Shown piece by piece: positions 5,992 to 45,360 of a stretch of DNA of 64,000 nucleotides. Numbering within the stretch: position 1 is the stretch's first letter; every line of letters begins with the position of its first letter. Position numbers and translations under genes: made by a program. Source of the DNA: a virus; IMG/VR virus record IMGVR_UViG_3300045988_179268, positions 96,001-160,000 of that record; one strand, given 5' to 3'. The notes under the pieces are model-generated. The model saw nothing but the letters and a program-made list of their open reading frames with translations, had not been told where the DNA came from and did not search any database.

Positions 5992-6052
5992 GACATGGTT
6001 AGTTCCCTTTGGTGGGTAGGGCGGGCTTTAATAGTCTGGTTCTCCTAAATGG

Positions 6053-6090: not shown

Positions 6091-6139
6091 CTATATACAA
6101 ACACAGCTGAAAATTTATAACTCACGGACAGATACGCGA

Positions 6140-16562: not shown

Positions 16563-16575
16563 CTACGGAGAACCA

Positions 16576-29241: not shown

Positions 29242-29862
29242 ATGGCGCAAGCACCTAAAAACAGCGCGAAATCATCAGATAATAAGCCTCCTGCAAGAGC
29301 CTACTATACAGACTATATTGACCCGACAGACGTGGAAGCCGCCCTAGGCCGAAACCCTGACTTAGTGCTATTCTCGGAGATGTCCAAACTTGCACGAAGC
29401 AACGCCATCCGCAAGTTTAAACGCTCCCAAGCAATTAACAAGGAAGCGGTTCTTGACCTCGCTAGGTTGCTCAAATCTGGTGCGCCTGTCCTGTATAACA
29501 CTCGAAAGAAACGTATCGAGATTCCGATTTCAGCGTCCAAAGTTCGAAGCACAGGGCATAGCAACGTCACTATCAGTACAGACCTGACTAAAGCAGGTGG
29601 GTTAGAAGCCGCCGCATCTATCTACCTCTCACATTTGCAAGAGTCGTACACTCCGGCAGAACTTGCTGAGTTCAAAGCTCAGCAAAAAGCTGAGCAGGAA
29701 GCCGCCGCTAAACTTACACAGGCTGAGCTTGAAGCAATCGACAATGCGGAATACGAGCATTGGCTGGGTCTTGAACGTAGCGCAGACGGAGGCGCAGACC
29801 TCATCGCACTTGTTAAAGAAGCACGTCAAGAAGGAAAAGAATATCAGGAGGCAATTAAATAA
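29242..29862 (+). CDS. hypothetical protein
   Basis: 206-aa ORF with an E/A/K-rich C-terminal helix. Confidence 0.5.
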   Translation: MAQAPKNSAKSSDNKPPARAYYTDYIDPTDVEAALGRNPDLVLFSEMSKLARSNAIRKFKRSQAINKEAVLDLARLLKSGAPVLYNTRKKRIEIPISASKVRSTGHSNVTISTDLTKAGGLEAAASIYLSHLQESYTPAELAEFKAQQKAEQEAAAKLTQAELEAIDNAEYEHWLGLERSADGGADLIALVKEARQEGKEYQEAIK

Positions 29863-30002
29863 TGGATGGGTTTCAGAACATCATCATTTTCCTGTTTGCT
29901 CTCGTGGTTGTAGCCGCTGTAGGTATCTTGACCCCCTTTGGGCGTGAAATCCTGCACAATTTCCTCATGTTTCTACAAGGGGTTCAGGTCGGAAATTCTT
30001 AA
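29862..30002 (+). CDS. 46-aa small membrane protein (below the ORF-track cutoff)
   Basis: The ATG overlaps the previous stop (TAATG). MDGFQNIIIFLFALVVVAAVGILTPFGREILHNFLMFLQGVQVGNS. Followed by a terminator. Confidence 0.4.
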   Translation: MDGFQNIIIFLFALVVVAAVGILTPFGREILHNFLMFLQGVQVGNS

Positions 30003-30107: not shown

Positions 30108-30734
30108 ATGCGCGTATCTATCCAGGGATATGAAGCCCCTGTCTACCAGCCATACAACGGCGACGGCTCCCATAACGCCGCCGCCGGACATGCATCAACA
30201 GCACTCTACACGGGCAATGATATTGAGCGTAAAGTGTTTGAAGTGTTGCCTGATGAGTTGAAAGAAGCAGACACATTCCCAGATGAAACCGTCTACTGCA
30301 TCACCAACGCTTTCATCCAGATTATCGCAGAACTGCAACTTGCCTACCAGTTCTACCTTAATGAAACTCACGCACTTCCCATCACTACAGAACAGCAACG
30401 CGGGTTTAAGACCTCAGTATCTAACATGCGAGTCCAAGCAGTTGTTCGTCAAACTCAGGAACTTTTCTACCCACTGACCTACGACATTATTGAGCCACAC
30501 ATTGTGGAGCATGATATGGAAGCTATCACTGATTGGGTGCAGAAAATTAAGTCACGCGCGAACGTTGCTCTCGGCAGGATAGCCCAGAATTTCAGCCACA
30601 CATTTGCTGGTGTCCCAAGCCCACCCGAAGGGTACTATGTAGGTGAGGATGCTGAACACTATGAAACATTCGTGCAGGGCGAAAATAGCCACGACTATGC
30701 TCCCGTAGAAATCATCTCCCTCAACGCCTTATAA
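30108..30734 (+). CDS. hypothetical protein
   Basis: 208-aa ORF. No motif recognised. Confidence 0.5.
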   Translation: MRVSIQGYEAPVYQPYNGDGSHNAAAGHASTALYTGNDIERKVFEVLPDELKEADTFPDETVYCITNAFIQIIAELQLAYQFYLNETHALPITTEQQRGFKTSVSNMRVQAVVRQTQELFYPLTYDIIEPHIVEHDMEAITDWVQKIKSRANVALGRIAQNFSHTFAGVPSPPEGYYVGEDAEHYETFVQGENSHDYAPVEIISLNAL

Positions 30735-30755: not shown

Positions 30756-31475
30756 ATGCAAGATAACCCACGGACAATAGATGTAGTTTTGGACATCCCT
30801 ACGCATCTAGTCTTGACCGAGAACTTGCGACTCACCCCTTTTGTGCGTGCCGCAATCGTGAAGTCGCTACGCGGAATAGCGTCTAGTCACGCCTCAAAAT
30901 TTGTTGAAGACAACCCTGAGTTCACCCCATTCAGACATTACATCGTCAGATTCGAAGTCCTGGGAATGAATAAAGGGCTTAGACTCGACCCAACTAACTA
31001 TGCGCCAACGCTAAAGCCCATTATCGACGGCTTCACTGGGCGCTGGTGGGATGATGACGACGCAGGGCACCTACTGGAAACCACATTCGCGTATGGCGGG
31101 CTATGGAAAAGCCCCCCTGAGGAACTTATCAAATATCGAAGGTTCCGAATCCGCATTACCGAGGTAAACCCGGAGCATTACACCGCAGAACCAATAGAGC
31201 GACCGTATCTTGAAGAAATAGCTTCGCAATGGGAGCTAGACCCTGCATATAGCATCCCCAAAGTCCCCCAAGACGGGAAAACAGACCCCAACGACGGAGT
31301 GAAACAATACTTTAAACTTATCACCCGTGAGGAACGGAAAAAGGAAGCGAAGAAACTCAAAACAGCCGCTTCGAAGCTACTCAACGAACCCGAAGAAGAC
31401 TCAGAAATCAAAATTGAAGTAACCATACCGGCACCAGATGAAACACCGCCAGACCCAGTAGAACTTGACTGGTAG
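30756..31475 (+). CDS. RusA-like Holliday-junction resolvase domain protein (tentative) with acidic C-terminal extension
   Basis: LDPTNYAPTLKPIIDGFTGRWWDDDDAGHL resembles the RusA D.DN..K...Dal....DD core. Confidence 0.4.
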   Translation: MQDNPRTIDVVLDIPTHLVLTENLRLTPFVRAAIVKSLRGIASSHASKFVEDNPEFTPFRHYIVRFEVLGMNKGLRLDPTNYAPTLKPIIDGFTGRWWDDDDAGHLLETTFAYGGLWKSPPEELIKYRRFRIRITEVNPEHYTAEPIERPYLEEIASQWELDPAYSIPKVPQDGKTDPNDGVKQYFKLITREERKKEAKKLKTAASKLLNEPEEDSEIKIEVTIPAPDETPPDPVELDW

Positions 31476-31481: not shown

Positions 31482-31546
31482 AAATAGAACCTCTCAGATA
31501 TGTAGTATATAAAGCCTAAATACTACACGCTTGAGAGGTTCTATTT
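31482..31546 (+). terminator. long two-tier hairpin plus T5 tract
   Basis: Outer 15-bp stem aaatagaacctctca / tgagaggttctattt. Inner stem gtagtat / atactac. Followed by ttttt. Confidence 0.7.
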
Positions 31547-31548: not shown

Positions 31549-32052
31549 GTGCGCATTGAAATAACTAACGCGACCGACGTTTTTGCTCGCGACAACCAAT
31601 TCTGGGAATTTGGCGGCTTCACATTCAGCAAACCCATTACACAGACCCAGTTCATCTGGGTAGGAGGCATACTCGCCGCCGCATATTTCCTATTCACCAT
31701 TCTCGCAAGCGTATTGCTAGGAATGTCTTTCATCATTTCCCTGCTGTGGACATGGGCACCCGCACTCGTCTTAGCCTACCCGCTGGGCAAAAAATTAGGC
31801 GACACATCAGAAAAATTTGACGGCATGACTGCCGGTAAATACCTCCTCGCTAAGCGCCGCTGGAAGAACCAAGCACGCGGATACCTTGACTGCGTAGAAT
31901 ACGACCCTAACGCTAAGCGAATCTACCGAATCGCAAGCGCAATTCAGGTATCAAACCGTGCTGACGACGCATTAGCAGAACTGCGAAAAACCGAAGAAGC
32001 CTACACGAAGAAGCCATTCATCGGCAAAAAGAAAGGTGCGCCTAAGAAATGA
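31549..32052 (+). CDS. TcpE/PrgI-like small conjugation membrane protein (VirB3 analogue candidate)
   Basis: Start taken at GTG 31549 after GAGAGG, because the tracked TTG 31531 lies inside the terminator stem. FWEFGGFTFSKPITQTQFIWVGG, then 2 TM helices. Stop overlaps the next ATG (ATGA 32049-32052). Confidence 0.45.
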   Translation: MRIEITNATDVFARDNQFWEFGGFTFSKPITQTQFIWVGGILAAAYFLFTILASVLLGMSFIISLLWTWAPALVLAYPLGKKLGDTSEKFDGMTAGKYLLAKRRWKNQARGYLDCVEYDPNAKRIYRIASAIQVSNRADDALAELRKTEEAYTKKPFIGKKKGAPKK

Positions 32053-33284
32053 GTCCCGAAGTCTACCGCCACGGTCAGCCAATGACAATTGGCATTAATG
32101 AACGCGCCGCCATTCCCGTCTTTTTCGACCTTCACTCAGCAAATAGGAATGACGAACCGCCCGTCACGCTATTTACAGGGAAACCAGGTAGCGGTAAAAC
32201 TTTTAGTATTCTCTGGACGTTATCTCTCGCCGCCCTCCAAGGTGCCGCCGTGGTAGGTATCGACTGGAAAGGCGACCTCCTGAAAATCCTCAATATCGAG
32301 GAAGTCTTAGGTGTCCCCACTAACGTCAAAACTATTGACGCAACCAAGGAAGAGAACATTGGTATTCTCGACCCCTTCGTCATCTTCGATAACCATGACA
32401 ACGAAAAAGAAGCCGCCGCTGACATTCAAACAGCTGTAAACGCACTCATTCACGCACTTATGCCGGGCGCACTTGCGGATGGGGAAATTAAGCCTTGGGT
32501 TGCGGCAACAATCAGCGACGTTATCAAAGCATACCCCAAAGAAAAAAGCATGAACGTGTTCTTTAACATGCTTCTAGACGTAGCTAGTGCCAATGGCAAC
32601 CAGAAACTCAAAGGTTTTGCACTCAGCCTCCAAAACACCCTTAACGAAGGTGCCGGAGTTATCCTGTGCGCCGAACCTGACCGAAAACCAGCACGCTACT
32701 TTGACTTCACACCTGGCGCTACCGTCATCGACCTATCCCGCCTACACGAGCTACCGAAGACAGTAGAAGACCTCAACGACCCTAGCAAAGCAGTCGGACA
32801 AGCAATCCTAACAATGGTCACACTACTCGTCCGCCAAAGTATGCTAAGAATGCCTAAGAACATTAAAAAAGTTCTCGCAATTGACGAAGCATGGGCAATT
32901 CTCGGCAACGAATCCGGCATGTCCCTAGTTAAATCAACCTCAAAACTAGGACGCTCCATGAACCTAGCAGTCATACTAGGTAGCCAGAGCTACAAAGACG
33001 TTTTCAACAACACAACAGGTCTTGACACCTCCCTAGCAAGCACACATTTCGCCTTCGCCAACTCACGCCAAGACGCAGAAATAGGTGCCCTCGCAATGGG
33101 GCTACAAGGAGACGACGCAGAACAGGTCATTAGTGCTATAACTCAATTACAGCAGGGACACTGCATCATGCAGGACATCCGCAAACGTCGAGGACACGTA
33201 CACATGATTGTGTGGCTAGAAGAACTAGTCAAAGCGTTCAGCACTAACCCATTCGACGAAACCCACCAACAGCAAGAAATTTAG
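32049..33284 (+). CDS. VirB4/TraC-superfamily (AAA_10/DUF87-like) conjugation ATPase, short form
   Basis: Walker A GKPGSGKTF. Walker B with the characteristic AIDEAWAILG. Translationally coupled to the TcpE-like gene. Confidence 0.65.
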   Translation: MSPEVYRHGQPMTIGINERAAIPVFFDLHSANRNDEPPVTLFTGKPGSGKTFSILWTLSLAALQGAAVVGIDWKGDLLKILNIEEVLGVPTNVKTIDATKEENIGILDPFVIFDNHDNEKEAAADIQTAVNALIHALMPGALADGEIKPWVAATISDVIKAYPKEKSMNVFFNMLLDVASANGNQKLKGFALSLQNTLNEGAGVILCAEPDRKPARYFDFTPGATVIDLSRLHELPKTVEDLNDPSKAVGQAILTMVTLLVRQSMLRMPKNIKKVLAIDEAWAILGNESGMSLVKSTSKLGRSMNLAVILGSQSYKDVFNNTTGLDTSLASTHFAFANSRQDAEIGALAMGLQGDDAEQVISAITQLQQGHCIMQDIRKRRGHVHMIVWLEELVKAFSTNPFDETHQQQEI

Positions 33285-33306
33285 CAACTAACCAAGGAGA
33301 ACACCT

Positions 33307-35061
33307 ATGGCACAGGACTCAACGTTAAGCCGTAAAAAGCGCTACCTGCCGCCAAACATTGTCTATGTTTCAGGCACAGAACAGTTTAATAAGTTGCAGA
33401 ACCCTAATAAGCCCCTTAAATCCGAGGCTATAGAAGGTGTTTATGATGCGGCTTTCTACCGCGAGTTCCTGAAATACCTCATGCCGCCCATCACCCCCGG
33501 CGAGGGTCCACGCATCCCAACTAAAGACTCCACAAGCATCTACGGCGTAACCGAAGATGAAGTGAACGAACTGTTATTCCCTGAAATTATTGGCATCTGC
33601 CCAACCATCGAATACCTATGGAATGACATCACCTCAGACCTGCCGTCCATCCCTAACACAATGGACGCTATCGTAGTACACTCAGACTACTATGCGGAAC
33701 TGCGCCGCAATAGCTTGAGGAACCCTCAGCAGGTACCTAACGTACTGCGAATCATGACTACCATCATGGAGACTACGCCCATCTTCGTCCTTGAAGATGC
33801 AAAAGATGCGCTGGAACACAGCCAATATCAGGCTATCCAAGTGGAGATGCAGAACCTACTGTTCACTAAGCAACTGCCGTACACCACTTACAACATTGAA
33901 ATCACCCGCATGGTGCCCAATAACCCCGAAGCGCCTTGGGATACCCTGCCGGAAAACTTCATTGCCTTACAGTTTTACGAAAAAATTCAGCTATTTCTTG
34001 CAAACCCGCCTGAATTTGGCGACCCGGTATTATCGTTCAGAGGCACACTAGAGTCGCGTGTAGACCCTGAGCTTGCCGCAATTCAAGAGGACATCGACCC
34101 TGACGCTACGCATATCAACGGTTCACCGTACCTTGGGCGCGTCATCACAGTAACATCTAAAAAAGGTGGTACTGGTAAGACAACAACCTCGCTAGGTATC
34201 GCACACGCACTCACCACATGGGGTAAAGAAGCTGTGGCGTACAACTATGCAGAGCACGCACTGAAAGTTATTGTGGTAGACCTTGACCTGCAAGACGGTC
34301 AGGTTGGTCTTAACACTAGCGACCAAAGCAAAACTGTTATCGGTATTTTCAACGATTTTCGTGAGTCTACCATCACTAGTGGGCATCGTGTGCTAGGTGA
34401 AGATAAGAAAAAAGACTGGGGCATTATTGAAAAGTACATTATCCGTAACGACCGAGTAGGTTACGACACGCTTCTTGCACCAGAAGACCCGCGTGACTTG
34501 AACGACCTAGACCCTCACTTCTATCGAGCTATAATCAGCACCTTACGTGAGCACTACGACGTAATCATTATTGACACGTCTGTTCAATTAACAGACCCAT
34601 ACATGGTGTTCTGCGCATACCCACTTACCTACAAACTGTATTATGTTGCTGAGCCTTACCCCGGTCCTTTGGACACTATGAAACGACAGTTTAACTATGG
34701 GTTAGGGTCTACACGCAACGGCGGTGGCGGCATGAACCCTCAGCGTATCAGCATCTTTGTAAACAAGATGGAACCTGACCATATCGTTAAGAAAGGCTCC
34801 GCTTTTGCGTTCTGGGACGTTGCAGACTACTCCGTCGGCGGAATCCCAGTGCTTACGGGTGTACCTTATTTACATGAAGCCGCACTAGACGCGGTGAATG
34901 TCAGCTTACCAGGCGGATTCAACTACCTACTGAATAACAAAGGCTACTCCGAAGGCATGTCCCTGTTAGCATACGACATTGTACGCGGCACAGGATATAA
35001 CCTGTTCAGCCCTGAACAGACAAACGATTTGGAAGACTATTTCGCCATGTCAAACCTATAA
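33307..35061 (+). CDS. ParA/MinD-superfamily ATPase of the CpaE/TadZ type with long N-terminal domain
   Basis: Deviant Walker A SKKGGTGKTTTS. VIVVDLDLQDGQV and DVIIIDTS motifs. RBS AAGGAGAAC. Confidence 0.7.
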   Translation: MAQDSTLSRKKRYLPPNIVYVSGTEQFNKLQNPNKPLKSEAIEGVYDAAFYREFLKYLMPPITPGEGPRIPTKDSTSIYGVTEDEVNELLFPEIIGICPTIEYLWNDITSDLPSIPNTMDAIVVHSDYYAELRRNSLRNPQQVPNVLRIMTTIMETTPIFVLEDAKDALEHSQYQAIQVEMQNLLFTKQLPYTTYNIEITRMVPNNPEAPWDTLPENFIALQFYEKIQLFLANPPEFGDPVLSFRGTLESRVDPELAAIQEDIDPDATHINGSPYLGRVITVTSKKGGTGKTTTSLGIAHALTTWGKEAVAYNYAEHALKVIVVDLDLQDGQVGLNTSDQSKTVIGIFNDFRESTITSGHRVLGEDKKKDWGIIEKYIIRNDRVGYDTLLAPEDPRDLNDLDPHFYRAIISTLREHYDVIIIDTSVQLTDPYMVFCAYPLTYKLYYVAEPYPGPLDTMKRQFNYGLGSTRNGGGGMNPQRISIFVNKMEPDHIVKKGSAFAFWDVADYSVGGIPVLTGVPYLHEAALDAVNVSLPGGFNYLLNNKGYSEGMSLLAYDIVRGTGYNLFSPEQTNDLEDYFAMSNL

Positions 35062-35507
35062 TTTGCGGGCAAGGGAACAGTCTTCTCCAACCCGTCATAA
35101 AGAAGTGGGACGGTAGGTTCAGTATCTACAGTATCAACTTTATCTGACACGGGTTTAATAACGGATTTAGAAGGTTTAGATTTAACGCTCTTCACCTTAC
35201 CAGACGGTTTCTTAGCCCCGCCAGGAGGTACGTTCACTTCTTCGGCGGGGCTAAACCATAATCCAATCACAACCATCAAGAAAGAAACCGTAAAAATAGC
35301 TACACTAAGCCCACCAAAAGAATCCCATAAGCCAATCATCCCAGCAAAACCAGCTAAACGACCGACCACACCTATGATTAAAGCCGCACCAAAGCCTACA
35401 AAAAGACCCAACCTAGCAACATAACCAGCCCAACCCTCACCATTTTTACGCACAAAAAATAGGGCACCCGAACGCACCCACCATAGCCCTAAAAACTTCT
35501 TCAACAT
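35037..35507 (-). CDS. membrane protein with K/S/P-rich tail
   Basis: The only long ORF in 35.06-35.5 kb. 3 TM helices. Convergent with 33307..35061 and overlapping it by 25 nt. Confidence 0.45.
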   Translation of the reverse strand: MLKKFLGLWWVRSGALFFVRKNGEGWAGYVARLGLFVGFGAALIIGVVGRLAGFAGMIGLWDSFGGLSVAIFTVSFLMVVIGLWFSPAEEVNVPPGGAKKPSGKVKSVKSKPSKSVIKPVSDKVDTVDTEPTVPLLYDGLEKTVPLPANYRFDMAK

Positions 35508-35625
35508 AACCTCAAAACACCTGCAAAATCAAGGGAAAACATACATAAAAGGCATAGCGCAAAACGCGCACAGCTATACAGTACTTAGACCTAAAATAAC
35601 CGCCCCTATTCGAAGGAAATCTGAT

Positions 35626-37191
35626 ATGCCTGCCGGACTGTCACTATCAGCGCTCAAACAGAACAACCACAACCCTGCCAGCCGTGAAAAAGACGAAGAA
35701 AACCGACTAAAAAACCTCAGCGCAAGCATCACCCAATACGCAGAAGACCAGCTTCCACCACCGGCACCTGAGCCTGACGTAGCGGAAGCTGAGCCGCCCG
35801 TGCCTGCCATTGACCAAGAAGCGTTAATGGCAGAAATTCTGCGTCAAGTACGAGAAGAACACAATAAAGCATCTGTCCCGCAAACGGCAGTCGTCACCAG
35901 TGACGACCTTGCCGCCGCATCAAAAGAAAAATACGGCTCCGTGGAACCAGCAGGGGAGTACAGCGCCCTCCGTAAATCCACACCCACCAGCCTCATAGAA
36001 CCCGACAACTTCCCGCTCAGTAGCATCATCACAGACGCATACGACATGGGAGCAAGCGACGTTTACATCCAACCCGAAACACCTATTCGATTCAAGGTGG
36101 GTGGCGGCTTAGCGCCCTACTACCAGCAACCTACACCTACCCGCAACGATGTTTCACGTCTACTTGAAAAAGTTACTCAGACTACCTCTTCTACAACGTT
36201 CCGCGCTGAAAAAGAACTAGACATTTCCTACACCATCCCTAAAGGAAAATACGCTGGCAGAAGGTGCCGTCTTAACGTAACATACGTTTCACCGGGTCTG
36301 TCGAACATCAATATGGTGTTCCGACTACTCGCTACCGACATTCAAGACCCATCCTACTACAACGTACCCAAAGCTTTCATTGATGCACTTCATCAAAAAG
36401 CAGGGCTTATCGTAGTCGCAGGCGTTACAGGTAGCGGTAAAACAACCACCATCGCATCAGGTCTATACTACGCGCAATGCAACGTCACAACACCACACCC
36501 CGTCACCGGCGAACCAATGGGCGTAACTATCGTCACCATCGAACAGCCAATCGAGTACCTATTCGACAACAACAACCCCAACTCAAACGGTAGCCTATTC
36601 ATCCAGCGAGAAGTGAACACCGACACACGCTCATTCCTCAACGGCATCAAATCAGCGCTACGCCAAAACCCGAACATTATGCTTATCGGTGAGGTGCGTA
36701 ACGAGCTGGAAATCCAAGCCGCGTTACGCGCCGCTGAAACAGGTCACCTTACCCTAACCACCGTCCACGCACAGGACTGTGCAGGCATCATTGAACGCTT
36801 AGCGACCAATGATGACGGTACGCTACGCGCAAATTCATTAGCTTCCATCGCATCTAGCGGGCGCGTATTCATGACGCAGGCACTAGTCAAGCGCATGGAT
36901 GGCGGGCTAATTCCTGCACATGAAGTCTTAGAGATTAGGCAATCGGACAGAGTGCTTATTGAAGACATCAAAACAGGCAATATTTCCGACATTCGCCAAC
37001 GCCTACAAGATGAAGGCGAAGACATGTGCTCCACTCTTATGAATTTGTGCCGTGCTGAAACGGGTCCCTGTTACGTTAAGGATGCGCTAGAACACGCGCC
37101 TGACCCGCACAGGTTCCTCACCCTTATCCGCACAGCCGAGGCAAACGGCGAACAGTTCAACTACCACCCAGACGAACTAAAAAACATTTAG
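35626..37191 (+). CDS. PilT/PilB/GspE-family secretion ATPase (type II/IV secretion NTPase)
   Basis: ASDVYIQPETPIRFKVGG, Walker A AGVTGSGKTTT, LIGEVRNELE and AAETGHLTLTTVHA. Confidence 0.85.
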   Translation: MPAGLSLSALKQNNHNPASREKDEENRLKNLSASITQYAEDQLPPPAPEPDVAEAEPPVPAIDQEALMAEILRQVREEHNKASVPQTAVVTSDDLAAASKEKYGSVEPAGEYSALRKSTPTSLIEPDNFPLSSIITDAYDMGASDVYIQPETPIRFKVGGGLAPYYQQPTPTRNDVSRLLEKVTQTTSSTTFRAEKELDISYTIPKGKYAGRRCRLNVTYVSPGLSNINMVFRLLATDIQDPSYYNVPKAFIDALHQKAGLIVVAGVTGSGKTTTIASGLYYAQCNVTTPHPVTGEPMGVTIVTIEQPIEYLFDNNNPNSNGSLFIQREVNTDTRSFLNGIKSALRQNPNIMLIGEVRNELEIQAALRAAETGHLTLTTVHAQDCAGIIERLATNDDGTLRANSLASIASSGRVFMTQALVKRMDGGLIPAHEVLEIRQSDRVLIEDIKTGNISDIRQRLQDEGEDMCSTLMNLCRAETGPCYVKDALEHAPDPHRFLTLIRTAEANGEQFNYHPDELKNI

Positions 37192-37399
37192 TTAGCATTA
37201 AAAAGTGCTAAAATGTTCCGCAAAAAGTTTGGAAAATCAGACCTGGAAATACGTCCCACAAGCGGCGTAAACTCTAGGCGCTTGATATATAACTACACAG
37301 ATAAATAAAAACCTCTCCAGCACCCCATACGCGGGCACATAGGGCAAGGAAGTCGAGCGCCAAGCCCTATAAAATCAGAGAGACTAACGGAAACAAAAT

Positions 37400-37447
37400 G
37401 GTAAGCCCCTAACCTTTTATTATGAAGGTTAGGGGCTTACCATTTTT
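37400..37447. terminator. bidirectional rho-independent terminator; left edge of the skewed module
   Basis: 15-bp stem ggtaagcccctaacc / ggttaggggcttacc. Flanked by aaacaaaa (U-tract for the minus strand) and attttt. Confidence 0.8.
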
Positions 37448-37458: not shown

Positions 37459-39102
37459 CTAAAACTCAAAAGCTGAAACGCCATCAAAAACAGACCCATC
37501 AGGGCGACACAAACGAATAGCGCGGATACGGTCATCACAACCATTCGCCAACGCCCACTCATTCACCTTACGCATCATACGGTCACCAGTACACAACCAC
37601 AATACCTGACCAAACACGCTCCTATCATCCTTATACTGCCCCAAAATAGTCTCCAAACGACCAGGCTTCTTACCGAAGCCACGCTCAATCTCAACAGCAA
37701 CACTGCGAGGCTCCCCATCCTCGCCACGCGGAACCATGCACACAATATCCGGCACATGGTACTTCGTCTCAGACGCACCACTCATTACCGCCCACATCCA
37801 CTCATTACCGCCGTAACACTCAGGAGAAACCCCAACACCACCAGCCGCACGCCAACTACGCAACACCTCACCACGGCGCGCAATCAAAACATCGCGCACG
37901 TCAAACCCAGCACGACCCCTAAACATTCCATGAATAGCGCCATTAATCACACGGTCAGGAATCACACTGAAACCACGAGCAACCTGCCCACCAACAACAC
38001 GACCACCAGATACTAAACCACCCAACCCCAAAACATCAACCGCACCATTCACCAACATCGCCCCCACATAATGAATAAGAGTACGATGCTGAAACTCGCT
38101 ATTACCCAGCGTCTTACGCGACACAGTAGCCCCACCAACACCAAACTCATCCAAACCCACACGTGTACCAACCCATACCGTATGACGCAAACCAGGAATG
38201 TCCACCGCCTCCAAACAGCCACGCCCCTGCAACCCCTTCAAATACTTCAACGCCGTAACCCTAGTAGAAACCCCCAACAACAACATCACAGCACGCACAT
38301 CAACCCAGCCAAACAGCCCAACAAACCCCATAATCTCAACCTCACGGCGCGAACCCATCAAACGCGGCGCAACACCACCATCCCCCTTGGAAGCCCTACG
38401 CACACGCTTCAAGCGCTCAGCCACAACATCCGGCGACTCACCAACCAACGGCGGAGACACAACATCAACCTCCCCAACACGAGACAGCCAATAAGAAGCC
38501 TGCTCCAACGCCAAACCATTAGAAACCTCAGTAGAACTCATACGCGAACCTCTCCCATCGTAATCAAAACGAAAACATGACAACTCACCAACACCAGCAC
38601 CTAGCCCCAAACCTCCCGGCGGCGCAACCAACCCACCTAACTCAACACCAACAGCATCACCTAAAGCCTCAACCCCCACACCAGACGCAGGAACAACAAA
38701 CCCATCCTGAATCGCCTCAAAATCAACACCATTCACGCCACCAAAAGACCACCTAGCGCGCGGAGTAACACCAAAAGAAAACCCGCCATGCACAAAAACA
38801 CCACCAACCGTAGAAACAACAGACCCATCCCAAACATACCCAGCACACTCCGCCGCAAAAGACCTAAACGCAACAGGAACCTGCGAAAAATCACGCACAC
38901 CCCGCGCACGCTCCAACACAGACCCATCCTCAACCGCAACACCAGACCCCAACACAAAACCATTCACCAAATGCCCAACACTGAACCCCGCATCACCCAA
39001 CTCACGAATAGACCCAGACCCAGAAAAAACATCCGGCGCTAAACCCTCAACAACCTTACGACCAACATTAACAACAGCCGAAGAAACAGACCCATCAACC
39101 AT
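37459..39102 (-). CDS. Replic_Relax (plasmid replication-relaxation)-like protein with G/V-rich N-terminal extension
   Basis: Start moved to ATG 39102 (GGAGG 7 nt upstream). wHTH-like VRAVMLLLGVSTRVTALKYLKGLQGRGCLEAV, HRTLIHYVGAML, and a PD-(D/E)xK-like VPDIVCMV...AVEIERGFGKK..LGQY. Confidence 0.55.
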   Translation of the reverse strand: MVDGSVSSAVVNVGRKVVEGLAPDVFSGSGSIRELGDAGFSVGHLVNGFVLGSGVAVEDGSVLERARGVRDFSQVPVAFRSFAAECAGYVWDGSVVSTVGGVFVHGGFSFGVTPRARWSFGGVNGVDFEAIQDGFVVPASGVGVEALGDAVGVELGGLVAPPGGLGLGAGVGELSCFRFDYDGRGSRMSSTEVSNGLALEQASYWLSRVGEVDVVSPPLVGESPDVVAERLKRVRRASKGDGGVAPRLMGSRREVEIMGFVGLFGWVDVRAVMLLLGVSTRVTALKYLKGLQGRGCLEAVDIPGLRHTVWVGTRVGLDEFGVGGATVSRKTLGNSEFQHRTLIHYVGAMLVNGAVDVLGLGGLVSGGRVVGGQVARGFSVIPDRVINGAIHGMFRGRAGFDVRDVLIARRGEVLRSWRAAGGVGVSPECYGGNEWMWAVMSGASETKYHVPDIVCMVPRGEDGEPRSVAVEIERGFGKKPGRLETILGQYKDDRSVFGQVLWLCTGDRMMRKVNEWALANGCDDRIRAIRLCRPDGSVFDGVSAFEF

Positions 39103-39165
39103 CAGGAAACCTCCAAAACTTATAAAGAAACTCGCAATCCACATAGCCGAAAACCCACGGCAATG

Positions 39166-39176
39166 TGTGATACAAT
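39166..39176 (+). promoter_or_regulatory. extended -10 promoter (tgTGaTACAAT) for the lipoprotein cassette
   Basis: tgtgatacaat matches the element-wide consensus. It interlocks back-to-back with the minus-strand -10. Confidence 0.45.
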
Positions 39177-39183
39177 CATACCA
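39175..39183 (-). promoter_or_regulatory. extended -10 promoter (TGgTATGAT) for 37459..39102
   Basis: The minus strand reads ttggTATGAT. ~70-nt leader to ATG 39102. Confidence 0.45.
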
Positions 39184-39216
39184 ACCAAACCCCCACCACA
39201 TCAAAGGAAAATCCCC

Positions 39217-39429
39217 ATGAAGAAGCTGTACAACATCGCAGGACTCACCTTAATCGCCACGCTTACCCTCACCGGATGCGGCAATAGTGAGAACACCCAA
39301 AAACCAGATACCACCAAGACATCCCAATCCGAAACAGACAGCCCACGCCGCGTAGTGAAACCCTGCGGGGCAGACACCACCGGCGACATTGAAATGGGTC
39401 AGGGACTCTGCGACCACGAAGAAAGGTAA
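39217..39429 (+). CDS. small lipoprotein
   Basis: MKKLYNIAGLTLIATLTLTGCGNSEN has a signal peptide plus the lipobox LTGC. RBS AAGGAAA. The tracked start 39163 would overlap the promoters. Confidence 0.6.
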   Translation: MKKLYNIAGLTLIATLTLTGCGNSENTQKPDTTKTSQSETDSPRRVVKPCGADTTGDIEMGQGLCDHEER

Positions 39430-39441
39430 CGAACAAACACT

Positions 39442-39720
39442 ATGGAATCATTCATCTACGGAGTTGTTAAAGTAACTCTCGAATACCACACGTACCCCAA
39501 TAACCCGGAAAAGAACCATATTGAAACCCGTGCATGGTACCTAGACGATAATAACAACAAAATTAAAACTGTCAGCACTAGTGACAACCCCCAAATGGAA
39601 GTAGTTCACGCCCTCTCAGAACACAACAAGCCAGTATACCAGAACGGTTTAGTGGGTGAGATGCTAGTCATTAATACAAATGACTACTCAATCTTCGAAA
39701 CCAAATACATTACCCACTAA
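39442..39720 (+). CDS. hypothetical protein (ordinary, AT-leaning composition)
   Basis: 92-aa ORF followed directly by a strong terminator. Confidence 0.55.
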   Translation: MESFIYGVVKVTLEYHTYPNNPEKNHIETRAWYLDDNNNKIKTVSTSDNPQMEVVHALSEHNKPVYQNGLVGEMLVINTNDYSIFETKYITH

Positions 39721-39726
39721 CAAAAA

Positions 39727-39773
39727 AGTATCCCTTAAACTCTCTACAGAGAAGAGTTTAAGGGATACTTTTT
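39727..39773 (+). terminator. rho-independent terminator
   Basis: 17-bp stem agtatcccttaaactct / agagtttaagggatact, then ttttt. Confidence 0.8.
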
Positions 39774-39787
39774 GCCCTATATTTTAA

Positions 39788-40588
39788 CTAACGCCAAGAC
39801 TCCGCGTGGTTCAAATCGCCTTCACAATACGCATAAACAACATCAAACATCTCAGGATACTGCTTAATAAACTCCGCCGGACTCATGCCAGCATACGCCA
39901 AACTAGGACCACCAATCAAAAGCGCCGTCTGAGTCGAACTAAAAGCATCGGAAGACCCATACACCCCCAAAAGCTTCACAATATCCTCCCTCACAGAACC
40001 GCCCTCAAACTGGAAACCAGGGTACCCCATGACACCCACCCACGCCGGATGCTTCGAAAAATCGGACAAAGGGAACCTAAGCACACGATTACTCTTAACC
40101 ATCTCCTCCAACTCACCCGAAGTCACACCCAAATACTCACAGACAGCACGCTCCGTATAGACACCCTGCAAATCTTCACCAAACACCGACTCCACGGCAG
40201 TAAGACCCCTTGAACCCTTGGCGACGGCAGTGTCAATCCCCTCACAAATGTAAGAAGTAAGCTTCTCCCCGTCACCCTCAGCGACATCAAGATACCCCGC
40301 CTCGCACAAGTCATCAACAGCCTTGCAAAGCATCTCCTTAACCCCCTCAACAGTTAGCGGGAACTTGCCTCTACCACCATAAGCAGAATAATAAGGCTGA
40401 GAACCCTCACGTTCACGAAGCATAAACAGCCCAACAGCCGCACAACAATGAAACAGCAAAACACGTTGAAGAGACTCAGTAATCACAACATCACCAGAGC
40501 CAACCTTCACATCAACATACTCACAAACCTCCTGCTTCACACCAGCAAGAACCTCAGCCTGCGCACTAGAAATAACACGAGAAGACAT
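39788..40588 (-). CDS. hypothetical protein, HTH-like plus C-terminal 'FQF...SP' module (family 2)
   Basis: 266 aa. ERAVCEYLGVTSGELEEMVKSNRVL, GYPGFQFEGG and LIGGPSLAYAGMSPAEFI. Confidence 0.55.
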   Translation of the reverse strand: MSSRVISSAQAEVLAGVKQEVCEYVDVKVGSGDVVITESLQRVLLFHCCAAVGLFMLREREGSQPYYSAYGGRGKFPLTVEGVKEMLCKAVDDLCEAGYLDVAEGDGEKLTSYICEGIDTAVAKGSRGLTAVESVFGEDLQGVYTERAVCEYLGVTSGELEEMVKSNRVLRFPLSDFSKHPAWVGVMGYPGFQFEGGSVREDIVKLLGVYGSSDAFSSTQTALLIGGPSLAYAGMSPAEFIKQYPEMFDVVYAYCEGDLNHAESWR

Positions 40589-40629
40589 TAAGCAACCCCC
40601 ACAATAGAAAGAAAAATAAGTGCAAAACT

Positions 40630-40638
40630 ATGATACCA
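40630..40638 (-). promoter_or_regulatory. extended -10 promoter (TGgTATCAT) for 39788..40588
   Basis: The minus strand reads tttggtatcat ~40 nt upstream of ATG 40588. Confidence 0.45.
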
Positions 40639-40713
40639 AACAAGGCAACACAAACACTAAAAACTGGGAGGGGTGAAACAAAAAACTTCACCCCTCCCAG
40701 CACCTACAAACGG

Positions 40714-41910
40714 CTACCCGCAATACCGCACAACCGCAAGAACCGCATCCACATACTCATCACCAAGACGCGCATACTCAACAGGCGCAACCAACCCAAA
40801 CCACGGCGACGGACTCTCCAAAAACTCAACAATACGGTCATCACCCCAACCCCAATCACGCAACTCACCCACAAGACGCACAGACCCAGAGAAAAACACC
40901 CAATCAATCACTAACCCATCATCCCCATAAACAGGCATCAGATGCACACCCTCAACAATATAATCGCCATCCCCATACTTCCCCGCCAGCAACTCGCCAG
41001 ACTCACACATACCCGCCACTACATCCTCAGGAACCCCCAACCCCTTAGCTACCTTGTGGGGTGGCAAACCAGCCCAACGGACACCATTAGAACGCTCATC
41101 AATACTAGCGAAACGGTGAACCAAAACACCCCACGGGACACGCAAAACCTCAGCCAAAGCCCCCAAATCAGCCAAAGAACCGCCACCCACAGACGGAACA
41201 ACACCTGCCACCGTCAAAGCAACAACATTCCCCGGCACTGGAACATTACCCACACCAGCACGCCCCCACGCACGCCCAACAACCTCAGCGCGCCGCCCCA
41301 ACGCACATTCACGCGCATCATCCAACACAAGAGCAACCAGAGCCTCATCACCCGACATCAACAACTCAGCCGCCGACAAAAACCCATACTCAAACGACGG
41401 CGTGAACAAAAAATCATCAGTAATATGAGGCTTCACACCAACAGCCCTGAACATCTTCACACACTCAAAAAACTCAGGGTTAAACCTCAAAGCGCCCTCA
41501 CCAGACACACTCCAAACTCCCTTACCGGCACCACCCCAAAACTGGGCACGAGTAAACAGCAAAGCACCCTCCCAGATGCCACCATTAAGGTAACCCTCCT
41601 CATACAGGCGCATCACCTCAGTGCCCGGCAACCCCTTATCCTCCAGCTCAGCCAAAGACAACCCGTCACCCCACTCACAATAAATACCCCACCCGGCAGA
41701 ACCGCCTCCAAACGCTTCCTCCAAACGCTCATACATGAACTCAGTAGAGACACCAAGAACACTAGAAACTAGCTCAAAATGCTCATTCTCCCAATCATAA
41801 GTAGACTTGGGAAGCCCTAAAGAACGAACCCTCAACACATCCTCAGCAGAGAAAAACTTGAAGCCAGGGTACTCATCAAAAACATTGTGCAACATGGAAG
41901 TAGCCTCCAA
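40714..41910 (-). CDS. hypothetical protein (family 2, duplicated module)
   Basis: 398 aa. GGAGG RBS before ATG 41910. G/V/W-rich. C-terminus FLESPSPWFGLVAPVEYARLG. Confidence 0.55.
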   Translation of the reverse strand: MEATSMLHNVFDEYPGFKFFSAEDVLRVRSLGLPKSTYDWENEHFELVSSVLGVSTEFMYERLEEAFGGGSAGWGIYCEWGDGLSLAELEDKGLPGTEVMRLYEEGYLNGGIWEGALLFTRAQFWGGAGKGVWSVSGEGALRFNPEFFECVKMFRAVGVKPHITDDFLFTPSFEYGFLSAAELLMSGDEALVALVLDDARECALGRRAEVVGRAWGRAGVGNVPVPGNVVALTVAGVVPSVGGGSLADLGALAEVLRVPWGVLVHRFASIDERSNGVRWAGLPPHKVAKGLGVPEDVVAGMCESGELLAGKYGDGDYIVEGVHLMPVYGDDGLVIDWVFFSGSVRLVGELRDWGWGDDRIVEFLESPSPWFGLVAPVEYARLGDEYVDAVLAVVRYCG

Positions 41911-42054
41911 AAGAAAAACAAAAATACTTGCACTCCCTATAATACCCCCCCCCTCAAAAAATCAAGAAAACACGCCGGTAAACATCTCTAGATACAATAC
42001 ATCCCACGCATAGAAGAGAATTAGAACACCCCTAAAGAGCATCCATCGCAAATA

Positions 42055-42065
42055 TGTGGTACAAT
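42055..42065 (+). promoter_or_regulatory. extended -10 promoter (tgTGgTACAAT) for 42179..43000
   Basis: Exact match to the island consensus. The ~110-nt leader contains the perfect hairpin ggttgagg-tgag-cctcaacc (42077-42096). Confidence 0.5.
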
Positions 42066-42178
42066 CTAAACATGAAAGGTTGAGGTGAGCCTCAACCCAC
42101 CACCCCACCCTAACCATACAGGGAACCCAAAAAAGGGGCGAACACCCAATCATTAAACACAGAAAGAGAGCATCAACA

Positions 42179-43000
42179 ATGCGAAACATCACCCCCTTCC
42201 TCTACTGGGAAACCCTCAACACCAACGACGGTATCCTCCTCATCCCCACCGACAACACCACCAACGACCGCATGGCAATCTACACCATCGACCAGGTAAC
42301 CAACACCGACCACGCCACCGCACGCCTGCGCCACGCAAGCTTCAACGCACCCAAGACCATCACCCTCACCCGCACCAACGGACAGCTCACCACCAACGAC
42401 CTACCAGACCTCAAAGCCGTAAACATCGGCACCCGAGGCGACGCTATCGAACCCACCTACTACGCCGTCGAAAACGACGACAACATCACCATCTGGTACA
42501 GCACCGAACACTACAACGACATCGCCATCGCACACACCCTCAAAGCCAACGGAGAAACCCGCGTAATCTTCCACGAACCCGACGAATACGATACCCCCGA
42601 AGGCGGGTACAACATCTGGACAGTCCTCCAAGCAACCGAAAACTACGAAGACACCGACACCCTCCCCGAAACCTTCAACATCCCAGAAGCCAACACCGCA
42701 CCTCTCACCCCCGAAACCGCACTAGCACTCCACGACACCCTCAACCACCCCGAATACCACACCCTCAACGACAAAGAAACCCTCGAAGAAGAACTAATCT
42801 CCCTCTGGCAAAACATCTCAGACTACTACGCAATCCCTGGCGAAATGCACTGGGTATCCGACACTGAAATCCTCTGGCGCGCCAAAGACTACCTCACCAC
42901 CGTACACGACATCGCAATCAAAGAAGGACGCGCCAACCTAGCCAACCAAACCCTCCACCACATCAACACCATCACCACCCACACCAACTACGAAGAATAA
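42179..43000 (+). CDS. hypothetical T/N/D/H/E-rich protein (A+C-rich coding strand)
   Basis: 273-aa ORF with diverse, protein-like sequence (..ILWRAKDYLTTVHDIAIKEGRANL..). It has its own promoter. Only one short mirror ORF lies antisense. Confidence 0.55.
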   Translation: MRNITPFLYWETLNTNDGILLIPTDNTTNDRMAIYTIDQVTNTDHATARLRHASFNAPKTITLTRTNGQLTTNDLPDLKAVNIGTRGDAIEPTYYAVENDDNITIWYSTEHYNDIAIAHTLKANGETRVIFHEPDEYDTPEGGYNIWTVLQATENYEDTDTLPETFNIPEANTAPLTPETALALHDTLNHPEYHTLNDKETLEEELISLWQNISDYYAIPGEMHWVSDTEILWRAKDYLTTVHDIAIKEGRANLANQTLHHINTITTHTNYEE

Positions 43001-43021
43001 CCCCCAAAACACCAAAAGATA

Positions 43022-43057
43022 CCCCTGGCAACCCGCACAAACACGGGAAACCAGGGG
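43022..43057 (-). terminator. hairpin terminator, U-tract only on the minus strand
   Basis: cccctgg / ccagggg with inner cccg / cggg. The minus strand continues tatcttttggtgtttt. Lies 27 nt after the stop of minus ORF 43084..45360. Confidence 0.55.
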
Positions 43058-43083
43058 CATCTTCCTATACCACCAACAACACA

Positions 43084-45360
43084 CTAACCACCCAAAACCG
43101 ACACAACCTCACCCACCGAAACACCCAACCCCAACACCGGCGAACCAACCGGCACATCAACCCAACCACCAGAAACACCCCAACCAGAACGACCAAACAA
43201 CCCAGCAGACCCACCACCACCAGAAACAACCCCCACCGGCGAACCAAACCCCTCACTACCAGCCACAAACCCCAAACCCAACCCACCATCCAAACCACCA
43301 CGCCCAGAAACAACCGAACCAACAACACCAGACAAAACACGCCCACCAACAGACCCCAAAACACCATCCAAACCACCACGCAACAACCCCCACAAAACAC
43401 CAGAACCCAAACCCGCAACCCTACCAAACACCGGACAAACCCCCGACAACCCCAAACCACCACCAACACCAGACACCACATCAACCAACCCCACCACAGA
43501 CGAAACACCCCTCAAACCACCAACCAAAGAACCCACCGGCGACCCACCAGGCAAAACACCACCACCAAACACACCCGACAAACCCCCAACACCCCACAAA
43601 CCAGACACACCATCAACCACACCACCACAAGAACCAGCAACCCCCACCGACAAAACACCACCACCAAACACCGACCCAAACCCCACAGGAACAAGCCCCG
43701 CCCCAAACACAAGAGAACGCCACAACCACCCATCAACATCAACCACAGCCCCAACACCCCCATCAACAAAACCACCATCAACATCAAAACCCTCAACAGC
43801 ACCAACAACACCAGACACACCCGGCACAAAACCACCAGCCCCAACACCCCAAACACCAACCCTACGCCCAAAACCAGCCCCAACACCACCACCACCCAAA
43901 ACACCCAAACCAGCAGACGACAAACCCCAAGAACAAGACAACCCGCCAACACCAGAAACACCCCCACCAACCGGCAACCCAAAAACCCCAACAACACCCG
44001 ACAAATCAACACCAAACCCCGAAACAGAACCCAAACCAGCCAACGCATCCAACCCAGACACCCCCGACACCAACCACGGCACAGCAACCCCAACACCACC
44101 AGAAACCCCACCAACATCCGCCGCACCAGCACCCACACCACCAAACCCAGCAGAGCCAACCCCACCAAAATCAACCCCACCGACAAAATCACCAACGGGC
44201 AAACCAATCGGCAAACCGCACACCCCAGACCCCATAAACAACCCCACTGGCGAACAACCCAACATGCCCAATAACCCATCAACCCCACCAGCCACAGAAC
44301 CACCAAACCCAGACGAAGAACCAAACCTCACGCCAGAACCACCCACAACACCAAACAAACCCGAACCTCTAGAAGCCCCCACAGACCTATTAAAACTAGT
44401 AGAAGGTAAAACAGTACCGCCAATAGACAAAACACCCTCAGAAGCCCCCTCAAGCCCCGTAGAAACCCCCTCTATAGTAACCCCATCAGTAGCAGGCTCA
44501 GAAAACTCCTCGCCACCACCCCAAAAACCCTCAACAAAACCGCCACCAACACCAACCCCCACAAAACCCCCAACACCATCCACAACACCAGACGAGCCCC
44601 ACCCCACCGACACACCAACCCCCACAGGCTCAACAAAACCGGCACCACGAAGCGAACCACCCCAAACACCAACCCGCCCATCAACCCCCAACAACCCAAC
44701 AACACCAGAATCAACGCCCCACAACTCAACACCAACCCCACCCGGAACAAACACCCCACACACACCACCAGACAACCCATCCCCCAACAACCCAGAACCC
44801 AAACCACCAACACCAACACCAGACTCCAAAACACCACGCCCAACAACCACAACAACCACACTCCAAAAAAGAAAAAACAAAAAAATAGTACACCACAAAC
44901 ATAGCCACAAAAACACCCCCACCCAGACAACCCCCAAAAAACAAAACCCCCAACACCCACCCAACAAACAAAAACCCCACAAAAACACCCCCACAACAAA
45001 AAAAACCAAACCAACCACCCCAAGCAAACCCCAAAAAACAACGCACCACAAACCCAAAACCACACAAAGAACTTGGGCAACACTAAAAATAAACACCAAA
45101 AACACGAATAACCAAGACACAAGACACAAGAGAAAAGGAAAAAGCAACAAGACATAACAGACACAGACACGCAAAGAGGAAAGCAATAACACTACAAAGA
45201 AAGAAGTACCCAGGATAAACAGATACACAAAATAAACACCAATACACGACAGACATAGAGGATAAGCGCAGACACATACACCATAAACAGAAAGAAGCAC
45301 AGGCACACAATACGCAAGCACAGAAAAACACGAAGGCAACAACAGATACAAGAGACACAC
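43084..45360 (-). CDS. candidate G/V/S-rich low-complexity protein (start uncertain; coding strand unresolved)
   Basis: 758-codon stop-free frame, with a minus-strand terminator just downstream. Composition resembles the G/V-rich N-terminus of 37459..39102. The N-terminal C/W/F-rich 170 aa look unnatural. Confidence 0.3.
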   Translation of the reverse strand: MCLLYLLLPSCFSVLAYCVPVLLSVYGVCVCAYPLCLSCIGVYFVYLFILGTSFFVVLLLSSLRVCVCYVLLLFPFLLCLVSWLFVFLVFIFSVAQVLCVVLGLWCVVFWGLLGVVGLVFFVVGVFLWGFCLLGGCWGFCFLGVVWVGVFLWLCLWCTIFLFFLFWSVVVVVVGRGVLESGVGVGGLGSGLLGDGLSGGVCGVFVPGGVGVELWGVDSGVVGLLGVDGRVGVWGGSLRGAGFVEPVGVGVSVGWGSSGVVDGVGGFVGVGVGGGFVEGFWGGGEEFSEPATDGVTIEGVSTGLEGASEGVLSIGGTVLPSTSFNRSVGASRGSGLFGVVGGSGVRFGSSSGFGGSVAGGVDGLLGMLGCSPVGLFMGSGVCGLPIGLPVGDFVGGVDFGGVGSAGFGGVGAGAADVGGVSGGVGVAVPWLVSGVSGLDALAGLGSVSGFGVDLSGVVGVFGLPVGGGVSGVGGLSCSWGLSSAGLGVLGGGGVGAGFGRRVGVWGVGAGGFVPGVSGVVGAVEGFDVDGGFVDGGVGAVVDVDGWLWRSLVFGAGLVPVGFGSVFGGGVLSVGVAGSCGGVVDGVSGLWGVGGLSGVFGGGVLPGGSPVGSLVGGLRGVSSVVGLVDVVSGVGGGLGLSGVCPVFGRVAGLGSGVLWGLLRGGLDGVLGSVGGRVLSGVVGSVVSGRGGLDGGLGLGFVAGSEGFGSPVGVVSGGGGSAGLFGRSGWGVSGGWVDVPVGSPVLGLGVSVGEVVSVLGG
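44264..45157 (+). CDS. alternative reading: P/T/K/N-rich disordered protein (frame open from 43088)
   Basis: By hand translation the plus frame is stop-free over 43088-45157, but there is no ATG/GTG/TTG before 44264 and no RBS. Shares wobble positions with the minus ORF. Confidence 0.2.
   Translation: MPNNPSTPPATEPPNPDEEPNLTPEPPTTPNKPEPLEAPTDLLKLVEGKTVPPIDKTPSEAPSSPVETPSIVTPSVAGSENSSPPPQKPSTKPPPTPTPTKPPTPSTTPDEPHPTDTPTPTGSTKPAPRSEPPQTPTRPSTPNNPTTPESTPHNSTPTPPGTNTPHTPPDNPSPNNPEPKPPTPTPDSKTPRPTTTTTTLQKRKNKKIVHHKHSHKNTPTQTTPKKQNPQHPPNKQKPHKNTPTTKKTKPTTPSKPQKTTHHKPKTTQRTWATLKINTKNTNNQDTRHKRKGKSNKT

Follow-up and report, generated by a model that had tools for sequence, protein, structure and literature searches.

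The 64,000-nt stretch analysed in this study (the window) corresponds to positions 96,001 to 160,000 of the IMG/VR virus record IMGVR_UViG_3300045988_179268 and represents a part of an element of about 300-400 kb, the remainder of which is mostly outside the view. Four open reading frames (ORFs) at 31531/31549-32052, 32049-33284, 33307-35061, and 35626-37191, all on the + strand, form a module encoding a TcpE/PrgI-like (VirB3-like) membrane protein, a VirB4-type ATPase, a two-domain ParA-like ATPase, and a PilT-like ATPase, respectively. An earlier note, prepared from the nucleotide sequence alone, had proposed that these genes form a hybrid of conjugation and Tad/type IV pilus machinery; all four genes, together with the motifs DEAW, KGGTGKTT, DLDLQDG, GSGKTTT, and AAETGHL, were recovered at the positions it had assigned to them. 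The reading favoured here, to which we give about an even chance, is that the module may serve as the cytoplasmic/inner-membrane "energy centre" of a type IV secretion system (T4SS) of the monoderm type (FA/FATA-like), most probably for DNA transfer. The roles of the PilT-like and ParA-like proteins are what we infer from the gene identities and the conservation described below; nothing in the window implies a pilus or fibre.

The first gene of the module (31549-32052, + strand) encodes 167 amino acids (aa) from a GTG codon or 173 aa from the TTG codon at 31531. GTG 31549 is the likely start, because it is preceded by GAGAGG and the metagenomic gene calls give a product of 167 aa. The protein contains a transmembrane (TM) hairpin at about residues 39-76. 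Taken alone, it remained under the cut-off of the two Pfam models that it matched, PrgI (E 1.5e-4) and TcpE (E 8e-3). A profile composed of the window protein and two orthologues was then compared, using hhalign, with a profile including a Nocardiopsis TcpE, itself recognised by Pfam TcpE at 73 bits, and the two were aligned with a probability of 97.2% and E 2.8e-11. This profile-profile match supports the TcpE/PrgI-like identity, and the sequence-based assignment to TcpE is solid at the family level. The stop of the TcpE-like gene and the start of the VirB4-like gene overlap in an ATGA at 32049-32052, as had been noticed earlier and is visible in the sequence; the two genes are thereby translationally coupled.

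The second gene (32049-33284, + strand) encodes a VirB4-type ATPase of 411 aa that comprises the C-terminal ATPase domain only, with the Walker A motif GKPGSGKT and the Walker B motif IDEAW. The Pfam AAA_10 match (118 bits, cut-off 27.5; E 5.6e-34) is in line with the short VirB4-like ATPase with DEAW described before. Among the NCBIfam models, TcpF was the best (E 1.7e-21), followed by CedB (E 3.4e-9), TraC, and VirB4; the equivalog cut-offs of TcpF, TraC, and VirB4 were missed by far, because only the C-terminal domain is present. A PHROG family also matched the protein. According to tblastn, 87-95% of it aligns to the C-terminal half of plasmid VirB4 proteins of about 846 aa from Bacillus and Nocardiopsis, which are located in canonical TcpC-TcpE-VirB4-VirB6-hydrolase clusters; the best plasmid matches were from Bacillus, Nocardiopsis, Enterococcus, and Clostridium. 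Since the alignment covers only the C-terminal half of the full-length proteins, the VirB4-like protein lacks the usual N-terminal domain.

The fourth gene (35626-37191, + strand) encodes a 521-aa protein of the PilT/DotB clade of hexameric secretion ATPases, with a Pfam T2SSE match of E 1.3e-33. A low-complexity N-terminal extension of about 130 aa is followed by the full PilT architecture: residues 130-503 were aligned to Aquifex PilT (2ewv) with 136 bits, the Walker A, Asp box, Walker B, and His box are intact, and the AIRNLIRE region is only partly conserved. Every curated model applied to this protein scored below its cut-off, the highest being pilT_fam (TIGR01420; 215.3 bits, cut-off 319.1), followed by DotB (114 bits, cut-off 463), TraJ (110 bits, cut-off 368), ComGA (110 bits), GspE and PilB (about 86 bits), VirB11 (41 bits, cut-off 250), and the TadA-type model TIGR03819 (30 bits, cut-off 373). 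In a rough neighbour-joining tree, the ATPases of the element family formed their own clade beside PilT and DotB-like sequences. Of the former label, PilT/GspE-type, the PilT half agrees with the T2SSE match and with the best-scoring model, while GspE and PilB scored much lower. The suggestion that the PilT-like protein plays a VirB11-like role lies closer to the evidence for this ATPase, although it is not a canonical VirB11.

The third gene (33307-35061, + strand) starts 22 nt after the VirB4-like gene and encodes a two-domain ATPase of 584 aa. In the AlphaFold2 (AF2) model, the N-terminal part (about residues 13-245; pLDDT 80-93) comprises five beta-alpha units arranged in a receiver-like fold without the acidic pocket, and the model of the ATPase domain is only moderate. 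The C-terminal part carries the deviant Walker A motif KKGGTGKTT of the ParA/MinD type. Pfam AAA_31 (E 2.6e-8) and CbiA matched the P-loop region only, a VirC1 match was weak, and the NCBIfam MinD and ParA models were all far under their cut-offs. A Foldseek search with the model retrieved ParA, MinD, and Wzc for the ATPase domain and TadZ (3fkq) at rank 29 with E 5e-3. The profile search of the PDB ranked MinD first, with TadZ absent from the result, and an identification as TadZ by sequence was therefore rejected. The likeness of the ParA-like protein to TadZ is architectural only, which makes it no more than a possible member of the TadZ family; thus, from the CpaE/TadZ-type ParA of the earlier note, the ParA/MinD ATPase with KGGTGKTT and DLDLQDG was retained, and the TadZ label was reduced to a similarity in domain order. 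Relatives of the protein were found in seven clusters among 5.8 billion proteins. A standard TcpC-TcpE-VirB4-VirB6-SLT cluster on a Nocardiopsis plasmid also includes a large N-extended MinD/ParA gene; orthology with the ParA-like protein was rejected, as the ATPase domain alone aligns, and by analogy this gene may be taken as a loose precedent for a ParA-like gene in a T4SS cluster. Another ParA-type ATPase working with a T4SS is VirC1 of Agrobacterium, a recruiter of the relaxosome.

The gene order of the module is identical in relatives at 40-97% PilT identity. Those at 40-45% keep the RecG-like gene, YdjM, and, further along, the TcpE-like, AAA_10, ParA-like, small antisense, and PilT-like genes in this succession. 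In relatives at 33-36% PilT identity (contigs of 128-272 kb), the TcpE, AAA_10, and ParA-like genes remain side by side; an inversion has turned the PilT-like gene together with its neighbour, yet both still adjoin the ParA-like/VirB4/TcpE block. The association of T4SS parts with ParA and PilT is regarded as real because it is kept across such deep divergence, and as specific to the element family because a chromosomal PilT match (P0056) has unrelated neighbours.

Further T4SS parts were found upstream. A giant polytopic VirB6-like membrane protein of 1340 aa (6140-10162, + strand), with at least seven predicted TM segments, contains the CD3337/EF1877 "mobilome membrane protein" domain (NF046089, E 3.5e-8; 32.7 bits against a cut-off of 120). 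It adjoins a membrane-anchored M23 peptidoglycan hydrolase of 1159 aa (10183-13662, + strand; Peptidase_M23, E 3.2e-25), the giant M23 hydrolase of the earlier description. The view was extended 7.9 kb leftwards of the window via locus L025, where positions 260-5843 encode a VirB6-like paralogue of 1369 aa (CD3337/EF1877, E 4.9e-8), followed by a Phage_lysozyme2 protein. The channel-plus-hydrolase pair is thus duplicated, one VirB6-like protein being accompanied by Phage_lysozyme2 and the other by M23. The gene set observed, consisting of VirB3-like, VirB4-like, two VirB6-like, and two hydrolase genes, has the monoderm pattern and therefore indicates that the backbone encodes a putative monoderm-type T4SS. 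Outer-membrane components of the VirB7/9/10 type were not detected among the Pfam and NCBIfam matches of the larger ORFs scanned.

In the favoured reading, the TcpE-like protein would be a VirB3-type anchor coupled to the VirB4-type ATPase, and the PilT-like hexamer would act as a third traffic ATPase, as VirB11 and DotB do in diderm systems, where they dock beneath the VirB4 hexamer (PMC12857230). The ATPases or the DNA substrate may be positioned or recruited by the ParA-like protein, in the way that TadZ serves TadA and VirC1 serves the relaxosome. The channel and wall-crossing parts would come from the upstream VirB6-like giants and hydrolases. A precedent for a PilT-family ATPase in a T4SS was found in the DotB-like gene of a Bordetella T4BSS plasmid. 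In its strongest form, which we put forward only tentatively and consider less probable than its opposite, the proposal is that this could be the first monoderm-type T4SS with a permanent VirB11-class (PilT/DotB-like) motor and a TadZ-like organiser on a VirB4 lacking the N-domain, driving the transfer of highly prevalent, undescribed extrachromosomal elements of 200-410 kb in the human microbiome.

Several observations weigh against the energy-centre reading. Between the ParA-like and PilT-like genes lie 565 nt with an antisense gene, and the PilT-like gene has the opposite orientation in distant relatives; for these reasons it may be transcribed separately. The usual task of PilT-clade ATPases is the retraction of type IV pili, and the sequence profiles place the ParA-like protein no nearer to TadZ or VirC1 than to MinD. 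The term "monoderm-type" is based on the gene set. Neither an FtsK/VirD4/TcpA-type coupling protein nor a relaxase was recognised in the 64-kb window using the Walker-A scan and Pfam. Of the ORFs with a Walker A motif, the SMC-like, DnaB, RecG-like, VirB4-like, and PilT-like ones were identifiable as helicases or ATPases and the others were chance motifs, so the FtsK-like coupling protein listed earlier is not borne out. The VirB8-like TcpC/PrgL had no Pfam or NCBIfam match among the scanned ORFs, although remote homologues could escape such a search. In addition, two relatives with 54% identity are filed as viral in IMG/VR, which makes a phage-related role possible, and the scans for pilus genes covered only the window of an element of about 300-400 kb.

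Comparison with described systems placed the module nearest to the MPF-FA/FATA group (pCW3 Tcp, pCF10 Prg/Pcf, ICEBs1 Con, and Tn916). The shared features are the coupling of a TcpE/PrgI protein with a VirB4-type ATPase, the presence of putative VirB6-like polytopic proteins beside peptidoglycan hydrolases, and the best VirB4 similarity to TcpF and to the plasmid VirB4s of Bacillus and Nocardiopsis. The module differs from this group in a VirB4 of half the length, without the N-terminal domain, in parts that are scattered over more than 30 kb and interspersed with replication and repair genes, and in a window without recognised TcpC/PrgL, coupling protein, or relaxase. According to a 2025 review of T4SSs, the Gram-positive systems are universally devoid of VirB11 homologues (PMC12857230). 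The statement that FATA systems lack PilT/TadZ-type components agrees with this rule in general, whereas the module itself breaks it, a PilT/DotB-clade ATPase being its conserved neighbour (PMC12857230).

The DotB/TraJ proteins of the type IVB systems (Dot/Icm and IncI R64) and VirB11 of the type IVA systems resemble the PilT-like protein in being hexameric secretion ATPases that serve a T4SS, and DotB and TraJ are themselves PilT-like, with models scoring 110-114 bits on it. However, those systems belong to diderms and have outer-membrane core complexes, and the PilT-like protein differs from DotB in being nearer to PilT (215 bits), in forming its own clade, and in its N-terminal extension of about 130 aa. 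The TadZ/CpaE-TadA pair of Tad (Flp) pili shows the same succession of a pseudo-receiver and a ParA/MinD ATPase beside a hexameric secretion ATPase; in contrast, no TadZ/CpaE model or structure was preferred over MinD/ParA for the module protein, the partner ATPase is of the PilT and not the TadA/CpaF type, the Flp pilin and TadB/C were not found, and TadV is unsupported. Chimeric systems, such as PAPI-1 and R64 with type IV pili and the mycobacterial pRAW with T4SS and type VII secretion, likewise combine a VirB4-type core with borrowed components (PMC12857230), but they carry a complete partner machine (a full type IV pilus or ESX locus), whereas only the PilT-like and ParA-like proteins are present here. 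Finally, CedB of the archaeal Ced system belongs to the VirB4 family and its NCBIfam model matches the VirB4-like protein, although the similarity to Ced and VirC1 is weak and confined to the P-loop regions.

In the literature searched, no paper joins VirB4, TcpE, and PilT. How Gram-positive systems energise substrate transfer by VirB4 and the coupling protein alone is an open question in the field. If the reading is true, a monoderm-type VirB3/VirB4 pair with a PilT/DotB-like ATPase and a ParA-like partner, conserved even at 33% identity, would provide a natural counter-example, and the module would give a handle on the exchange of traffic ATPases between type IV filament machines and T4SSs. 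To call it an exception to the no-VirB11 rule requires a monoderm host.

A machine derived from a T4SS and used for something other than conjugation, such as DNA uptake (Ced-like), release of effectors or DNA, or a step of a phage-like life cycle, was considered unlikely. It would accommodate the CedB and PHROG matches of the VirB4-like protein, the occurrence of related contigs in IMG/VR, and the lack of coupling protein and relaxase findings in the window, since T4SSs without VirD4 serve other functions (PMC12857230). However, the two missing genes may lie outside the window, in which the scans returned no match to capsid, portal, or terminase. Moreover, pairs of VirB6-like proteins and hydrolases are typical of Gram-positive conjugative elements, and the module has a conserved, possibly MobC-like, DNA-processing neighbour.

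It is also improbable that the T4SS genes have two unrelated housekeeping functions as neighbours, the 584-aa protein being the partition ATPase of a giant replicon with low copy number and the PilT-like protein having a separate role. The simple partition ATPase considered in the earlier note fits the operon context poorly: neither a ParB-like nor a centromere-binding gene adjoins 33307, which is located directly behind the VirB4-like gene, and its adjacency with VirB4 and PilT outlasts both the inversion and the divergence to 33-36% PilT identity. Both lysines found in the deviant Walker A of active ParA/MinD dimers are retained, but the N-domain is a pseudo-receiver and not the helix-turn-helix of type Ia ParA. 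The partition models ParA, SopA, and RepA gave 16-27 bits against cut-offs of 180-725, all of which were missed; the profile searches assigned neither 33307 to plasmid ParA nor 35626 to canonical VirB11. On the other side, a giant replicon depends on active partition, the block is set among replication and repair genes, and it is at most about 8 kb from a skew switch that is a possible origin, as is likewise the case in distant relatives.

A search for pilus parts covered the window. The six-frame scan revealed no ORF with a class III or Flp signal (G/xxxxE type) followed by a hydrophobic segment, and the Pfam matches of the larger ORFs included neither a T2SSF (GspF/TadB/TadC) platform nor a PilB/TadA assembly ATPase. 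These scans agree with the earlier impression that a GspF/TadB-type platform and a class III pilin are absent. The gene at 21527-22174 (+ strand), previously called A24 prepilin-peptidase-like, encodes a conserved polytopic membrane protein of 215 aa, whose family has the invariant motifs TD87...RK, AGD138, and PxxPxxxxPF. The two aspartates, D87 and D138, are 51 residues apart, and this layout resembles the D...GD...FGP of A24 controls at the motif level only. For six family members, Pfam gave no Peptidase_A24 match up to E 10, whereas two A24 controls were detected at 1e-13 and 1e-30. The hhalign comparison with GspO and an actinobacterial A24 peptidase gave a probability of 0.1%, Foldseek found no match for the poor AF2 model (pLDDT 60), and the profile search of 1.84 billion representatives returned seven proteins of its own family, none informative. 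The A24 assignment was rejected, as Pfam, hhalign, tblastn, and the profile search were all unsupportive and the fold model was too weak.

In type IV filament systems, a retraction ATPase alone cannot build a fibre. For this reason, and given the lack of a pilin, platform, or assembly ATPase in the scans above, the unsupported A24 membership with its uninformative fold test, and the placement of the ATPase in the PilT/DotB clade rather than with TadA/CpaF (TIGR03819 far below its cut-off), it is very doubtful that the PilT-like and TadZ-like proteins drive and position an element-encoded Tad/type IV pilus-like fibre beside the T4SS, even though true pilus-retraction PilT proteins are the nearest relatives of the ATPase, the ParA-like protein shows the TadZ domain order, the 21527-22174 protein has two invariant membrane aspartates in A24-like contexts, most of the element is outside the view, and conjugation assisted by type IV pili is known in R64 and PAPI-1 (PMC12857230).

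The window has a G+C content of about 49%, contains no tRNA genes according to the tRNA scan, and consists mostly of ORFs without a known family. The backbone ORFs assigned to families encode an SMC/LmuB-like ATPase, SSB, DnaB, a RecG-like helicase, and YdjM, and Shine-Dalgarno motifs precede most of the genes. The exact sequence of the PilT-like protein occurs on many contigs of 300-412 kb with identical gene order from human-metagenome assemblies, and one member of its 90% cluster is recorded on 149 contigs. The carrier family is known only from metagenomic contigs of roughly 130-412 kb; complete members include, for instance, k141_217275 of ENA ERZ27319633 (412 kb) and scaffold_1 of ERZ28637164 (367 kb). 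At the nucleotide level, the window region had no match in PLSDB and INPHARED, the best identity of its proteins to these collections was only about 32%, and no close relative was found among the GTDB species representatives. Identity with Inocles was rejected, as their G+C content is 24-32% (PMC12340149) against about 49% in the window. Segatella LEEs were judged unlikely owing to the lack of a close plasmid or genome match, the common Shine-Dalgarno motifs, and T4SS parts of the Bacillota/Actinomycetota type (PMC10635906). The carrier family, for which no description was found in the collections and literature searched, probably consists of undescribed giant elements of the extrachromosomal type from the human microbiome, and it may represent, alongside Inocles, another large unrecognised mobile replicon of this environment.

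Just 5' of the module, a hairpin with a U-run is located at 31482-31546 (+ strand). Its predicted RNA fold has -35.2 kcal/mol (z -6.2), with none of 200 shuffles folding equally well, and it comprises two perfectly paired stem segments of 16 and 8 bp. The 3' arm contains the GAGAGG Shine-Dalgarno of the GTG start at 31549. The hairpin is likely a terminator, attenuator, or translational gate/switch for the module; the relative L010 has a different, non-homologous hairpin at the equivalent upstream position. A bidirectional intrinsic terminator with a 20-bp stem, predicted on both strands at 37398-37443 by the terminator scan, closes the module after the PilT-like gene. The antisense gene between the ParA-like and PilT-like genes (35037-35507, - strand) encodes a small two-TM membrane protein of 156 aa. 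It was called in L001-L006 (156 aa) and in L009-L011 (104-105 aa), and these products have a common C-terminal TVPL motif.

The neighbour of the PilT-like gene (37459-39204, - strand) is a conserved 581-aa ORF, called as 547 aa, with a G/V-rich variable N-terminal half. By BLASTP, its product is 29-34% identical to the PilT-adjacent proteins of 947 aa in L012 and 875 aa in L014. The alignment points to a possible winged-helix part and a PD-(D/E)xK-like motif in the conserved C-terminal half. Pfam, PDB, and PLSDB gave no match for this protein, and the L012 homologue had a weak MobC_subf (replication-relaxation) match with E 0.005. As a lead only, the gene possibly encodes a replication-relaxation/MobC-like DNA-processing protein, a candidate novel relaxase or nuclease; its designation as a relaxase was rejected, the MobC match in one homologue being the sole hint.

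The gene directly 5' of the TcpE-like gene (30756-31475, + strand) occupies this position in all relatives. Its product is 37% identical, by BLASTP, to those of L012 15141-15620 and L014 15793-16299, has no Pfam match, and looks RusA-like by the motif IDPxNYxPTxKxxIDG...WDDD alone. It was also considered as the source of the lost VirB4 N-domain and rejected in view of this motif. In L012, a TnpB/Cas12f-like (Cas12f1-like_TNB) gene at 15726-17270 (- strand) lies between the homologues of window 30108-30734 and 30756-31475; this insertion shows that the backbone tolerates IS-type insertions upstream of the TcpE-like gene. Farther upstream, a peptide of 46 aa whose TM segment is N-terminal (MDGFQNIIIFLFALVVVAAVGIL...) is encoded at 29862-30002 (+ strand), and gene calls of identical length were made in all close and mid-distance relatives. 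It does not have the Glu5 expected of type IV pilins.

For the module, PADLOC gave only generic P-loop matches among the defence-system families, and a defence role was rejected in the absence of a module-specific match. Elsewhere in the window, the SMC/SbcC-like ATPase at 2139-4409 (+ strand) is a full-length match to the Lamassu LmuB model (E 6.7e-36), and small ORFs flank this gene at 1345-2043, 4738-5328, and 5350-5991.

Downstream of the module, the + strand is nearly pure A+C for about 2 kb, with the AT skew rising to 0.92 and the GC skew falling to -0.80. The skewed zone extends over 37500-45500 of the window, is most extreme at 43000-45000, and ends at about 45500, where both skews flip abruptly. 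This zone holds degenerate CA-rich tandem repeats and a G/V/W-rich ORF of variable length (43084-45360, - strand). The bias tracks the strand and not the orientation of the genes. A replication origin or terminus may be located at the switch, or the bias may be related to single-stranded DNA. A like switch was observed in the distant relatives L012 (about 4500-7500) and L014 (about 2000-5000), a few kb from the PilT-like gene and its neighbour.

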